A stretch of DNA of 63,868 nucleotides, the filler included, from Perkinsus olseni (taxonomy: Eukaryota), in assembly GCA_013115125.1 (NCBI GenBank). It is 6 parts of 6 records of this genome, joined end to end, with 100 filler letters (N's around TTAATTAATTAA, not from the genome) between each part and the next. Parts side by side here need not be neighbours in the genome. Positions count along the whole stretch, not along the records: positions 11,621 to 23,121 come from JABANN010000829.1; positions 23,222 to 34,692 come from JABANN010000830.1; positions 34,793 to 46,136 come from JABANN010000832.1; positions 46,237 to 57,544 come from JABANN010000833.1; 2 more parts are not named here. One strand, given 5' to 3'. Within the stretch, counting starts at the first letter, position 1, and each line of letters opens with the position of its first letter. Shown here piece after piece: positions 19,067 to 53,673 of the stretch. The notes beneath the pieces are model-generated. The model saw only the letters and a program-made list of their open reading frames with translations. It searched no databases and had not been told where the DNA came from. The position numbers were made by a program, and so were the translations under genes.

Positions 19067-19088
19067 CTCAGCCTGGCTGAGTCAGCCA
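19067..19088. mobile_element. Exact hAT-type hairpin excision footprint, T=CTCAGCCA
   Basis: ctcagcc-tggctgag-tcagcca = T(1-7)+rc(T)+T(2-8). Confidence 0.8.
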
Positions 19089-19919
19089 GTGTGTACTCGG
19101 GTAGTGGAAACCCTAGTGCCCGGCCATGAACTATGTCTCATTCTCGATAGTATCTGCCATTGGTGAGCAAAAAAAGAGGAAATATAGTGGATTTCAACTA
19201 CGCTTTCGCCCTTGACTCAACGCTGATACAACCGGCGTCAGCGACACGCGATCGGCGATCGCTATATAGGGGAAACCGGAGAAGAGGGCGGGCGTATGAC
19301 GGCGAAATTGGTCGTCATCGCTGATAACAAGGTGGAGCGCCCCTTCAATAGATGACACCCCCTCGACTGCTCGCTACAGGTTCGCTCAACTACAAGCTCC
19401 TAAATACCACATATCGCGCAGATTGAAACAGGGCTATAGTGGGGTGTCGTAAGCAGTATGGGTCAGAACAAATTCTGGAAATGGAGCGAATGATCACTGA
19501 TATGTCACGCACGAATCTTATGCTATACCTCCGATCGTTTAAGGCAGGGACGGCGTAGAAGGCGAAGCGCTCACCACATCATACTTGTAAGGCAAGCCAT
19601 ACTTGCCTAGGTGCCTTGGTGCGGCGGAATTCAGAAGACCAGCCTGCGCGAGAAGGCAGCTTGTTCATCAGCTTTCTCAGATCTATTCAAGACCTGTCGG
19701 GCCCATAGTCAAGGCAATCGGGACAACTGGAAAGCAATTGCAACTCAGAACGAGCTCTGAAGATAACACATGCATGACGCTAGAGACACAGCATGCACAT
19801 GCTCAAGACTGGAATAATCGAGCGGGGTCCGACGTATTGAATCCTATCGCATCATCAATCAGGAATCTTCATAACCAACGAGACCAATGAAGCTCAACCC
19901 CTCGGAAGTGAGGATGGGC

Positions 19920-20009
19920 CTCATATTGACCTGTTTCGTATCTCACTAGGCTCGACCTATGATGCTCATATCGACCTGTTTCGTATCCCACTATCTTCGA
20001 TCTATGATA
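19920..20009. repeat. Two-copy ~45-bp tandem repeat
   Basis: ctcatatYgacctgtttcgtatcYcacta...cgaYctatgat occurs twice. Confidence 0.85.
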
Positions 20010-20507
20010 CTAGGTCGGCCGGTTCGATGGCATTTGGGCATCACTACTCCCTTCGGCTTGCACCACTCAGGGTCATTGCTTATTTGCAGTGCGCTTAGAT
20101 GTATCCTCTGACCACCTGGTGATCACCACCATACCTATACCAGTGGATCAGCAACAACAATGGCTCCCGGAGGAGCAGGAGCACGCCCAACGGCACATAG
20201 GAGCGTCGCAGGGTTCCCACCTCGTCCGCCCGACCAGGAGACCAGTTATGTCACATGGTTGACAGAAGCTATCCTGCGGGAAGTCCCTTTTTTCAGCCCC
20301 GATAATGCAGCGAAATTGAATACTCTACCAACTGGCCTCTTCGACGCCCAGGGAGTGGCCAGAAGGCAAATTTCTGCTGTGCAAGAACATCAATCACTAC
20401 ACGTGCTTGACAGCGCAGAGAAAACACTAGACTAAAGAACCGGCAAGGCGATCGAGTGCGTCGCAGTGTCTTAGGTAGCCCCTTTCGCGATTGCATAATA
20501 ACGCTCT

Positions 20508-20529
20508 ACCAGTCCGACTGGTCCAGTCG
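20508..20529. mobile_element. Exact hAT-type hairpin excision footprint, T=ACCAGTCG
   Basis: accagtc-cgactggt-ccagtcg. Confidence 0.8.
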
Positions 20530-20865
20530 CTTCTTTTCTTCATTTAATTTTTTGTTTTCGTTCTTTGGAGGCTTTGCTGACGTTTGACTCGCTCCGATAC
20601 CGCCTCAAAGGAAGCTAACAAGTTTATCTCGAGAACATCTATATTCTTGCAATCGTTTCCAAGTTCTACCACCACCAAAGTGTTGGAGATGATGTCGGCT
20701 TGCGCTGACAACGAAGCGACTGCGTTAGTGATCACCCAAACCGATTAGACTAGCTTCGGAACACGATAAACAAGCCTGGAGGATCGGAAAATAATCGGAG
20801 TATGTTGGAAACTAAAAGCGCCATTATGTCGGCTTGGTGGAGTAGTTCAATGATCGAGCGGTAGC

Positions 20866-49833: not shown

Positions 49834-50994
49834 TACTTGATAAAGTTGGGGTTCCCAGAATCAACTCTGCCAATTACGCTAAGACAACCCATCCCGAAAC
49901 TCAACCCCATTCCTCATTAAGAAAAGCGAAGGCCGTGGCGACTGCGGTCGCAACCATGCCAGCGTGAGGCGTCGAAAGAAAGGCAGAATACACGAGTACT
50001 GTACGGCGTTGTGATAGTCTCAGAGCTGAAAGAGGAATCTTATGTCCTCCAGCGAGAGACCCTCCAAGCTGCCATCACCGTCTATTATACCACGACACAC
50101 TGCCCGTTTCTTCTCCTACGCTCAAGAACGATCGTCCAGCGTTGCTGCAGCAGTGAATTTACCTGTAACGCCACAATCCTTTCCTCTATGGTATCCTTGG
50201 TGACCATCTTCACGACTTGAACCCGCTTGATCTGTCCTAAGCGATGAGCCCGCTGGGTGGCCTGCTGTTCGACTGCCGGGTTCCACCAAGGATCTGATAG
50301 AGGAATCATTGGCCATCAGTGAATCACACCTTCGCCTGGGGGGATTCCGTCGTGCCGTCATTACCATCTCCCACGACAGACTATCGATTCTCAATCCGCT
50401 AATTGGTCTACTCTCATTGAGAATAGACTAATTAGCGGATTGAAAATTTCTCAAGTGAGTACGCGACTGAACACGGCCCCTAAAGCCTCAACATTGTGTA
50501 GAAAGCCAGAAGGGGCTCACCCAAGAGGAAGATATGATTCGCTGCTTGGAGGTTGAGGCCCTCCCCTCCGGACATGAGGGATATCAGCAACAACGGACAG
50601 GTATCAGCGGGGGACTGACGAACGGAGAATGAACGTGGATTATGCATCCACATCTCACCTCGATGAAAGTCTTCATAACCTTGGAGCGTAGAGGCAGTGA
50701 GAGCTCGCCGTGGAGGATCTGAAGGGACATTCAAGCAGAGACCTCACGGCACGGTCAGACTGACGAGTGTGGTGATGCCGGCTTTGTGGAGGCGGTACTG
50801 GCACAGCTCCAGTAGGGATACAAAGCAGGAGAAGACGAGCCTGAAACGTCACACCTACAGTGTGGTGGGGGAAAGAGTGAATTGATGAGAGCAGATCTGA
50901 AAACAGATCTCCGAGAACGGCTCCTTTTCTCTCTTGCGACCATTCTCGATGTGTGGTAACAGATGCATCGCGGTAGCCAACATTCAACAGTCTG

Positions 50995-51190
50995 GCGACA
51001 CGTCAAGTATATCACAGTCATCATTCCTCAGTGGTGCCACGTCTAGTATATCACAGTCACCATCCCTCAGTGGTGCCACGTCTAGTATATCACAGTCGCC
51101 ATCCCTCAGTGTGGTGACACGTCTAGTATATCACAGTCGTCATCCCTCAGTGCACGTCTACGCGTCGTGTAGTATATCAGAGTCACCATG
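50995..51190. repeat. Intronic ~39-bp minisatellite, about 4-5 copies
   Basis: Repeats of gccacgtctagtatatcacagtcRccatccctcagtggt. Confidence 0.9.
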
Positions 51191-51708
51191 AACATTCCAC
51201 ATTTCGTTCTCACGAGTATGGAAGAATGAGAAATTGCAGCCCATGATCTATCATCACTCAGTCGTGCTAAATCTGGTAACCCCTGTGACTATGCAAACAC
51301 CCAGAGTTGAGCATTGCCTACCCCTTCGCCTCTCCATCGGCCTTCCTCATAGCCTGCACCTCCGCGACCAACCCTTCGATCTTCGATGAGCTCTCGAAGC
51401 TGGATATCGGTACTCTCTTCAAGATGGTAGCCTTGCGTGGCACTCTCGGGTCATTCTGCAGTTGCCGAAGGGCGACAGTCTCCATGATGCTGTCATCAGA
51501 CTCATCCTCCTCATCGCCACATAGGGGCTACGAAAAGGGCATTTCAGAAAAACAATCCGATGGGCGATCTAGCATGCTCACATTGCCATACCAGACCTCC
51601 AGCTGTTTTCGACAAACCGGGCAGTACTGGTTTTGGAGACGGAGCCACGACTGCACGCAGGAACTAAAATGAGAGTGGTGGTAAAACCGAGTGAACGATG
51701 CTCGAGGC

Positions 51709-51730
51709 GCTATGACTCATAGCCTATGAG
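51709..51730. mobile_element. Exact hAT-type excision footprint in an intron, T=GCTATGAG
   Basis: gctatga-ctcatagc-ctatgag. Confidence 0.8.
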
Positions 51731-53651
51731 ACTCTATCGAAACGTGCTGAGAGGAATCACAAACGGCCGGCGCGTGCCGTACTTATGGAAGAGATGATCA
51801 CACTTAGCCTTGGCGAGTGCCTGGCCGGCACATCCAGTTCGCGGAGGGATCTCCTGGTGGCAGATGCCCTGACGAGAAAACAAGGTGCGACTGGATGAGC
51901 ATAGCAGCTGAAGAGCCCCCAAGGAAAGCCAGGATGACGTACACAGTTAATTTCCTTCTGTGCTCTATGTTCTATCAGGTACTTATGGTTGGCCGCCTGA
52001 AGGGAAAGACCTAATGCACCGCGTACGGCCAACTGGAGTATCATCGGCCCACTTGGCGAAGACGCAGGATCATCTTCAGGGCCTCCACCACACGCTCAGC
52101 CAGCTCGCCTTTCTTCGCGTACTTCACAACTTGGGCGCGATACTTCTCATACTTCGCTTGATAGTACGCGGCCTCCGCAGCCGACAACACTGAGCTGGCC
52201 GGCCTCTCCTCCATAGGGGGCAACTTCACATCGCTCTGCCGCTGGGCTTTGGTTCGTCTCAGAAGGAACTTCCCCAGCAGCTGAGACCGTAACATCCGCA
52301 TCCCCTCAGCTCCCTCGAGGGATGTCAGGCCGGACCTGCAGAATACCAATAACCTGCTACCCATCAGGTCAGCGAGTTTACGTACTTCTGGATGGGCCGG
52401 GCGATGAAGCGGTTAAAGTAGTTGTAGTGAGCGTGCTTAGAGTGTCCACACTCATGGCACTCGTCGTCCCAGGGATGATCCAACACTTCACAGCGACAGC
52501 CTGCGGTGTCGCACCCAGTCGTGGACAGCGGCCTTATCCGCAGAAACCTGTGCAAACCGACTGTGGGTGACGGTGGGCTGAGGACTTCCTACCGGGCCAA
52601 GGAAAATAGATCGCCAACCCGATTCTGGATCGGGGTGCCGGTCAGGCACCATCGGTAACGGCATCGCAGGGCGGAGCTGAAAACGACACGGATGGGCTGG
52701 GGCAAGCCAGACAGTCAACAGCAGCTGCCCCAATTCTCATGAGCTTCCACGCCCCTGCACTCACGCTGCTCGGGCGGTATTGGTCGTCTTGTTCCGAATG
52801 CGATGGGCCTCATCGAGGCAGACCCTGCCCCAGACGATAGAATGGAGAAGCATGTTAGACCGTAGCCTCTCATCGAGAGGTTCACGTTCACATCCTAAAG
52901 CGGAGCAGTTCGCGAGGGAATTATCGCAAGAGTGACCCACCAATATCGTCTTCAACGTTGAAGGTCTCAGGCGGCTGCCGCCATTGCCCGCCTGCACCAG
53001 GACTGGATCGCGCGGCCGACGCCTCTTTGCGACGCTTGACGGAACTACGGCCAGCCGGACTCTTTCGCTTCACCCTCCCCGAGCTCGTGCTGGGGTCAAC
53101 CCTCACCCTGACTTCCTTATCAGGCGTCTTGAGCTCGACCGACGGGCTGCTGCTCTCGGTCGCCCCGCGACACTCATCCCGCTCAAAGGCAGAAGTGGAT
53201 GCTTGCCCCTCGCAGATGCTATCGAGTTTGACCGGATTCCCACCAACCGGATCCGTTTTCGCGCATGCTCCGGGGCCTGATGGAATCCCACCCCCTACAA
53301 TCTCAGCCTCGACTACATCCTCAGTGAGATCAATTACATCCATACTCTGGTAGGGGGTGAACGCGGCCACCAGTGACACAGCGCCTTCCTCCTTGCACGA
53401 CTGAGTGCCATCGGAGGAGATCGATATGACTTCGCAGTCTTCCGACGGCCCTCCCATCCGAGGACCAGTCGCTCCCCTCCCCTCCTGCTTGCATTGAGGT
53501 TCCAGACGTTCCCCTTCCGACTTCAAATCCTCCTTCAACGGCTCGCTTTTGGTTGCGCAACCGGATGCCATATCCACATGACTTTCGCTGTAACGACCGA
53601 AGGGGTACCTCAACGACAAGCCTGCTCGGCCCCCAGAAGGCTCGCCCTTCA

Positions 53652-53673
53652 CTGCTGTCACAGCAGTGCTGTG
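53652..53673. mobile_element. Exact hAT-type excision footprint in a coding exon, T=CTGCTGTG
   Basis: ctgctgt-cacagcag-tgctgtg. Collapsing it to one T fuses ORFs 53658-54854 and 52921-53661 in frame. Confidence 0.88.

Follow-up and report, generated by a model that had tools for sequence, protein, structure and literature searches.

We describe a recurrent 22-bp unit in a 63,868-nt stretch of DNA from the shellfish parasite Perkinsus olseni (GenBank assembly GCA_013115125.1; hereafter the window). The unit reads T(1-7)+rc(T)+T(2-8), where T is an 8-mer that changes from copy to copy and rc(T) is its reverse complement. We consider it probable that each of these 22-mers is the footprint of a single insertion and a single later excision of a cut-and-paste transposon with 8-bp target site duplications (TSDs), most likely a hAT-type miniature inverted-repeat transposable element (MITE). 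Directly observed are the structure of the unit (T length k = 8, one-base offset), its recovery in independent reads, one occupied and one empty site, and variants that have decayed or carry long inserts; from these we infer the hAT family assignment, the nick positions, the annealing-type (microhomology) repair route and the repair enzymes acting on the hairpins. Excision by a hAT element had already been proposed in a first-pass annotation of this DNA, and the k = 8 peak, the empty and occupied states and the independent reads all lend support to that interpretation.

Structure and abundance of the 22-bp units

The window consists of six contigs, with spacers of N44+TTAATTAATTAA+N44 in between:

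Contig 1: 1-11520
Contig 2: 11621-23121
Contig 3: 23222-34692
Contig 4: 34793-46136
Contig 5: 46237-57544
Contig 6: 57645-63868

GC content is 47-59% in contigs 1-5 and 16-17% in contig 6, and because the AT-rich sequence of the latter yields spurious low-mismatch matches to the unit, contig 6 was omitted from counts. The six 22-mers first reported fit T(1-7)+rc(T)+T(2-8) at every base; their spread over four of the six contigs and the arithmetic behind their chance expectation (about 2e-4) are likewise correct. While all six are exact, that count overlooked two further exact copies (32359 and 38131) and every decayed copy. An exhaustive scan of k = 4-13 returned eight exact copies at k = 8, two in each of four contigs, and none at k = 7 or at k = 9-13. 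The copies with up to two mismatches are given below, where X1 and X2 are assemblies from two sequencing studies and X7 is a diverged sequencing run:

19067..19088, exact, T = CTCAGCCA, between two ADH-like paralogues
20508..20529, exact, T = ACCAGTCG, between the same two paralogues
26413..26434, exact, T = GGAGTAAC, in X1 contig 23566-29050 and X2 contig 23574-29050 with 0 differences
32359..32380, exact, newly found, T = ATCGTGAT, within a complex palindromic locus (32303-32393)
38131..38152, exact, newly found, T = AGCCTTAG
42781..42802, exact, T = GCCCTAGT, adjoining a variant scar at 42803..42875
51709..51730, exact, T = GCTATGAG, small intron of a rad16-like gene
53652..53673, exact, T = CTGCTGTG, long exon of the rad16-like gene (minus strand), +14 frameshift
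28627..28648, one mismatch, covered by X1 and X2 contigs
29456..29477, one mismatch
29906..29927, one mismatch
31901..31922, one mismatch, covered by X1 and X2 contigs
56551..56572, one mismatch
18729..18750, two mismatches
20110..20131, two mismatches equal to one middle-arm change
27448..27469, two mismatches, covered by X1 and X2 contigs
27849..27870, two mismatches, also in X7 piece 27822-28270 with 0 gaps
34379..34400, two mismatches, covered by an X7 piece with gaps only outside the scar
54689..54710, two mismatches equal to one middle-arm change, probably in an intron of the rad16-like gene

In contigs 1-5 (57.5 kb), units with 0, 1, 2 and 3 mismatches numbered 8, 5, 6 and 10, as compared with 0, 0.025, 0.2 and 3.05 expected from forty order-2 Markov simulations, from which we estimate that about 26 units in 57 kb are real. 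The single middle-arm change seen in the scars at 20110 and 54689 is the look expected of point mutation after formation. With decayed copies included, the density exceeds the earlier estimate of about one exact scar per 10 kb; in these contigs there is roughly one recognisable scar per 2-3 kb against one resident MITE, a ratio of about 25 to 1.

The anticipated specificity for k = 8 was evident as a sharp peak both in the scan over k and in a grid of k = 6-11 by offset 0, 1 or 2. In the grid, clear excess was found solely at k = 8 and offset 1, with k = 6 and k = 7 at offset 1 slightly above simulations, and with k = 9-11 at offset 1 and all k at offsets 0 and 2 at background level. In all scars the two palindrome centres are the complements of the end bases of T. 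Perfect palindromes centred on one nucleotide with arms of at least 7 nt are abundant (37 vs 3.5 expected), and those centred on 0, 2, 4 or 6 nt remain at background (5 vs 3.45, 3 vs 4.8, 7 vs 3.85 and 4 vs 3.4, respectively). When the general form T(1-7) h' N{m} a' T(2-8) was searched for m = 0-45, with h' and a' the complements of bases 8 and 1, enrichment was confined to m = 6 (11 vs 0.55 expected).

These regularities bear on a transposon-free origin, in which replication template switching or polymerase snap-back at ordinary breaks would create the units. A double strand switch would indeed produce forward-reverse-forward units, and no transposase was seen in the window; however, switching gives no reason why 8 nt and a one-base offset should recur every time, and the bases at the two centres complement the first and last base of T, just as covalent hairpins predict. 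As detailed below, an element with an 8-bp TSD is present in the same contig as several scars, and the 8-bp T is kept even in variants with long inserts, and we consider a transposon-free origin very unlikely.

The scar sequences all differ from one another, and among the scars we found no shared flanking context or target logo beyond a weak bias toward T at position 2 and A at position 7 of the target word (16 of 38 symmetrised positions vs 0.24 expected, p ~0.009, 19 sites). This bias may correspond to the nTnnnnAn target preference of the hAT transposon Hermes (PMC10368747). That the units are common in non-coding DNA and have two possible folds might suggest that they are functional motifs under selection, for instance regulatory or protein-binding sites in double-hairpin form, as opposed to neutral scars. 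Yet each copy has its own sequence, copies erode through point mutation, a coding exon is broken by one of them, and the T2/A7 bias is all that the copies have in common by way of context or logo, making selected motifs highly improbable.

Empty and occupied sites and recovery in independent reads

The first-pass annotation called for a comparison of single-T (empty) and T-element-T (occupied) states, and an example of each was found. The empty state comes from a rad16-like SNF2/RING/helicase gene at 50023-54857 (minus strand), which carries three scars, one frameshifting its long exon and two intronic. All three P. olseni homologues that cross the exonic scar at 53652 (88, 86 and 76% identity; a P. 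chesapeaki protein is 47% identical to the rad16-like open reading frame [ORF]) are uninterrupted there and match only without the 14 extra bases. Alignments of P0121 and P0122, two of the P. olseni proteins, follow one frame over 54854-53664 and another from 53658 on. Conceptual translation at this scar gives ..VVKGESTA, then LL and a stop inside the scar, followed by TAVKGEPSGGRAGLSLRY in the other frame, and P0122 at the same site reads VVKGESTAVKSEPSGGRAGLSLRY, as if a single T were present. In silico deletion of the 14 nt extends the spanning ORF from 399 to 640 codons; a nearby intact rad16-like paralogue has a 653-codon exon. As there is no 14-mer of the form GT..AG at this scar, the gene models could not have spliced the 14 nt out. 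The gene copy at 50023-54857, or this allele of it, may be a pseudogene.

The other two scars of this gene fall where introns would be placed. Protein blocks end at 51779-51782 and resume at 51677-51692, which puts the scar at 51709 in an intron of about 51700-51782 (minus strand), and the decayed scar at 54689 sits in a 57-nt in-frame stretch missing from the P. olseni proteins. Small introns are normal here, since five GT..AG stretches of contig 3, each 42-114 nt long, are missing from contigs of run X9. This run, which we guess to be RNA, has no cover over 25520-28966 and is uninformative on expression. The second rad16-like paralogue of the same contig lies at 47296-49534 (minus strand), and the two copies align over 145 aa only, far from the scar at 53652.

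The occupied state was found in contig 3, the same contig as several scars, in a scan for 8-bp direct repeats around inverted termini (TSD plus terminal inverted repeat [TIR]), which returned one clean element:

29012..29095, occupied site; MITE at 29020-29087, 68 bp; TIR CAGGGTGTCTGA, 12/12 matching; 8-bp TSD TCTAAGTA

Summed contig depth is raised in the bin holding this MITE (212 vs 83 in X1, 546 vs 213 in X2), as expected of a repeat family, and the system has apparently been active recently. Its TIR starts with CAGGG, as does the Ac terminal repeat, short Ac-like TIRs starting with CAGGG or TAGGG; the agreement concerns one element only. Three other TSD-plus-TIR matches were set aside as chance-like, their TSDs and TIRs being imperfect, and for TIR-like matches at 18909, 28309 and 43103 no partner was found. 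The joints between X7 and X1 at 23422/23613 and 30017/30092, considered as further elements, are not TIR elements.

Ten public sequencing runs from four studies contain contig 2, and the scars themselves were checked in reads for contig 3. There the expectation that scars would reappear in independent reads was realised: the X1 contigs (23566-29050 and 31826-34647) and X2 contigs (23574-29050 and 31827-34647) span seven scars (26413, 27448, 27849, 28627, 31901, 32359 and 34379) with 0 differences, 0 gaps and depth equal to that of the flanks. One of the two studies is possibly the source of the window, which leaves at least one independent sequencing. Among the listed pieces of run X7, where about 3-8% of aligned positions differ, two cover decayed scars (27849 and 34379) and show no gap there, from which it follows that older scars are inherited and shared; no listed X7 piece extends across the exact scars at 26413 and 32359. 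To judge from these alignments, the scars look like inherited marks of different ages.

An artefact of assembly, library or sequencing, or deliberate planting of the units, might be suspected from how exact and stereotyped they are, and from the even distribution of two exact copies to each of four contigs. Set against this are the independently assembled contigs of two studies with 0 differences at flank depth, the copies with one to three mismatches well above expectation, the two decayed copies without gaps in the diverged lineage X7, and the scar that frameshifts a gene intact in relatives. An artefactual origin is in our view barely conceivable.

Proposed excision mechanism and comparison with known systems

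Under the proposed mechanism, insertion would convert a single 8-mer T into T-element-T. At excision the transposase would seal the flanks as hairpins, each with a tip that is the complement of the element-adjacent base. Host enzymes would nick both hairpins on the 3' side, at a distance from the tip of 7-8 nt or more and sometimes of as much as 30 nt. Once unfolded, the flanks would be 3' tails, the left one bearing rc(T) and the right one, on the bottom strand, T. Since insertion had duplicated T, these tails would pair over exactly 8 nt and could anneal there, after which flaps would be trimmed, gaps filled and the ends sealed. The site would then read T(1-7)+rc(T)+T(2-8), longer than a single T by 14 nt and subject thereafter to decay by point mutation. 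As pairing of the two direct T copies would restore the site and leave no trace, the scars would be a lower bound on excisions.

Several loci depart from the 22-bp form and are informative on where the nicks may fall:

42803..42875, variant scar, T = TGTCAGTG, with a 30-nt right palindromic insert and a short left insert
31543..31605, variant scar, T = AGTATACG, with a short left insert and a partly decayed right insert of about 21 nt
15699..15720, variant scar, T = GTTGATAG, left palindrome arms of 8 nt, right T shortened to the final 5-6 bases
50387..50447, palindrome of 61 bp around one central base, arms of 30 nt with 90% complementarity, a probable old scar that took up a long insert
49610..49646, palindrome centred on one base, arms 11 nt (perfect) or 18 nt (at 89%)

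The scar at 42803..42875 is laid out as T(1-7), the complement of base 8, a short left palindromic insert, the right insert, and T(2-8) with the flank, the 30-nt right insert being centred at 42845 on the complement of base 1. All three variant scars retain the 8-bp T and the complemented end bases, and palindromes centred on one nucleotide reach arms of 30 nt (42815-42875), 11 nt (49617-49639) and 9 nt. The first-pass annotation had both hairpins opened about 7 nt in. In our data 7 nt is only a minimum, variant scars extending to 30 nt. Given inserts of 30 and 21 nt, nicks could lie far from the tip, and distal nicking with flap removal would account for the scars better than a precise 7-nt cut. 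It is an even bet, in our estimate, whether Perkinsus repairs transposase-made hairpin breaks almost only through distal nicking and pairing of the opened-out arms, tip-proximal end joining of the Artemis/Ku type contributing little or nothing.

The two independent scars at 42781-42802 and 42803-42875 occupy directly neighbouring 8-mers, GCCCTAGT and then TGTCAGTG, and this arrangement suggests repeated events at one place, either by local hopping or at a target hotspot. Among lone palindromes, 2 of 21 have a remnant of a second T of at least 5 nt beside an arm. The locus at 32303-32393 has perfect 20-nt inverted arms around 51 nt that hold many copies of ATCGTGAT and its complement, together with an exact scar and a smaller palindrome centred on one nucleotide. 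It may derive from nested insertion and excision events; the exact scar within it (32359) is covered by X1 contig 31826-34647 and X2 contig 31827-34647 with 0 differences.

The same footprints could be left by a transposon of another superfamily with 8-bp TSDs (Mutator-like, Merlin, P or similar). The Mutator-like element (MULE) Muta1 resembles the system proposed here in its 8- or 9-bp TSDs and its flank hairpins (PMC5499845), Merlin elements have 8-9-bp TSDs and Merlin-related ORFs occur in P. marinus (PMC8101967), and no transposase was seen in the window. On the other hand, there is no excess at k = 9, and Merlin TIRs end in 5'-GG (PMC8101967) while the MITE starts with CAGGG, a 5'-CA terminus. 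More than 90% of Muta1 excisions in yeast are precise (PMC5499845), and its TIR type differs from that of the MITE; as for the features of Mutator-like elements in general (a 9-bp, sometimes 8-bp TSD and long TIRs), no k = 9 signal exists and the MITE TIR is short, though Muta1 does have 8-bp TSDs (PMC5499845). The complement of the element-adjacent base at the hairpin tip is a documented signature of Ac/Ds (PMC5873905), and the weak T2/A7 target bias would also fit hAT. Another superfamily is accordingly an unlikely source.

Several observations weigh against a hAT origin of the scars. Duplications of 8 bp are also made by MULE and Merlin elements (PMC5499845, PMC8101967), and the ten longest ORFs of the window contain no transposase domain in Pfam, four of the ten being without any family. 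Only one occupied site is present in 57 kb, and there is no direct tie between its MITE family and any scar. The empty-site evidence is at the protein level, concerns one scar and comes from a related species or isolate; the empty (53652) and occupied (29012-29095) states belong to different sites. Finally, the short form classically left by hAT elements (m = 0) shows no enrichment (1 vs 0.8 expected), in contrast to all hosts with catalogued Ac/Ds footprints (PMC5873905), so that the repair route would need to be unusual.

Footprints of Ac/Ds, catalogued in plants, Saccharomyces cerevisiae and Candida albicans, consist of deletions and of palindromic insertions whose centre complements the base that adjoined the element, with arms of up to 20 nt in yeast and microhomology at most joints (PMC5873905, citing Coen 1986, Yu 2004, Huefner 2011 and Lazarow 2012). 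The Perkinsus scars are alike in retaining the 8-bp TSD and in their palindromic insertions centred on the complement. They differ in that Ac/Ds leaves many, mostly short footprints (28 types among 128 events in Candida), whereas one +14 product dominates in Perkinsus, and the Perkinsus record is a natural genome census, as opposed to the reporter assays behind the Ac/Ds catalogues (PMC5873905). An identical +14 product may already figure among the many footprints recorded in yeast or Arabidopsis.

Excision of mPing likewise draws on homology supplied by the duplicated target and has a uniform outcome, its TSD-derived microhomology repair restoring the empty site precisely and without hairpins (PMC4561436). 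In contrast to mPing, homology here would lie between unfolded hairpin arms, and 14 nt are added.

Hairpins formed by RAG and Transib are not known to have an unpaired tip base and hence give even palindromes, and the Transib TSD is 5 bp. Our scars are unlike this type, in that even palindromes are at background (0-nt centre, 5 vs 3.45), as are offset-0 patterns. They would share with the P nucleotides of V(D)J coding joints and with RAG/Transib, which PMC5499845 mentions, a flank hairpin made by a transposase-type enzyme, its off-centre opening by the host and the resulting palindromic additions.

Taken together, hAT footprints with palindromic additions are known, and what is new is the dominance of a single long +14 product, the lack of the usual short forms, the density and the host. 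Our literature search returned no description of such scars in Perkinsus, as the first-pass annotation had also noted, nor any report of hAT activity in this genus in the literature searched.

Significance and sequence context

On a hAT-type excision origin, the scars would record heavy past transposon traffic and an unusually uniform repair outcome in a shellfish parasite. They would allow cut-and-paste events that are invisible to repeat finders to be counted and dated from sequence alone, and would indicate a particular hairpin-processing and end-joining route in Perkinsea. They also represent a mutational process that can frameshift genes, here a rad16-like repair gene, and lengthen small introns by 14 nt. 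The MITE system itself, apparently recently active, belongs to a commercially important shellfish parasite, in which presence or absence of individual scars could be used as clean strain markers. If distal nicking and annealing do operate almost exclusively, each imprecise hAT excision would leave the same +14 'barcode', and the genome would hold a dense, datable census of transposon visits together with their cost in frameshifts and longer introns. For a parasite in which genetic work is difficult, the scars would further provide a natural read-out of the choice among double-strand-break repair routes.

Protein matches assign the DNA to Perkinsus. Two ADH-like (zinc-binding dehydrogenase) paralogues stand in tandem at 17389-18354 and 20863-21828 with 97% identity over 966 bp, the ADH-like ORF being 71% identical to a P. 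olseni protein. In self-BLAST only their coding parts align, the flanks and the intergenic scars being unalignable, and this comparison suggests that recent duplication or gene conversion was limited to the coding part.

Elsewhere, a 938-codon open frame at 11572-14385 (minus strand), which has internal repeats of about 33 nt at 12097-12465 and a 459-bp internal duplication, has no Pfam match. Contig 6 (57645-63868) yielded no ORF of at least 90 aa, even with TGA read as W, and, being compositionally unlike the other five, may be organellar or satellite DNA. The region 29733-32030 in contig 3 reaches depth 5-40x single-copy in three DNA runs. It contains tRNA genes at 30523-30595 (plus strand) and 30693-30764 (tRNA-Pro CGG, minus strand), has an internally duplicated segment whose copies have diverged (30220-30765 vs 31267-31852), and may represent a tRNA-linked repeat family. 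At 29531-29577, a 17-nt unit (ATTTTTTCATCCACGAG) is present in about three tandem copies, and the diverged run X7 has 6 different letters in place of 43 nt there.

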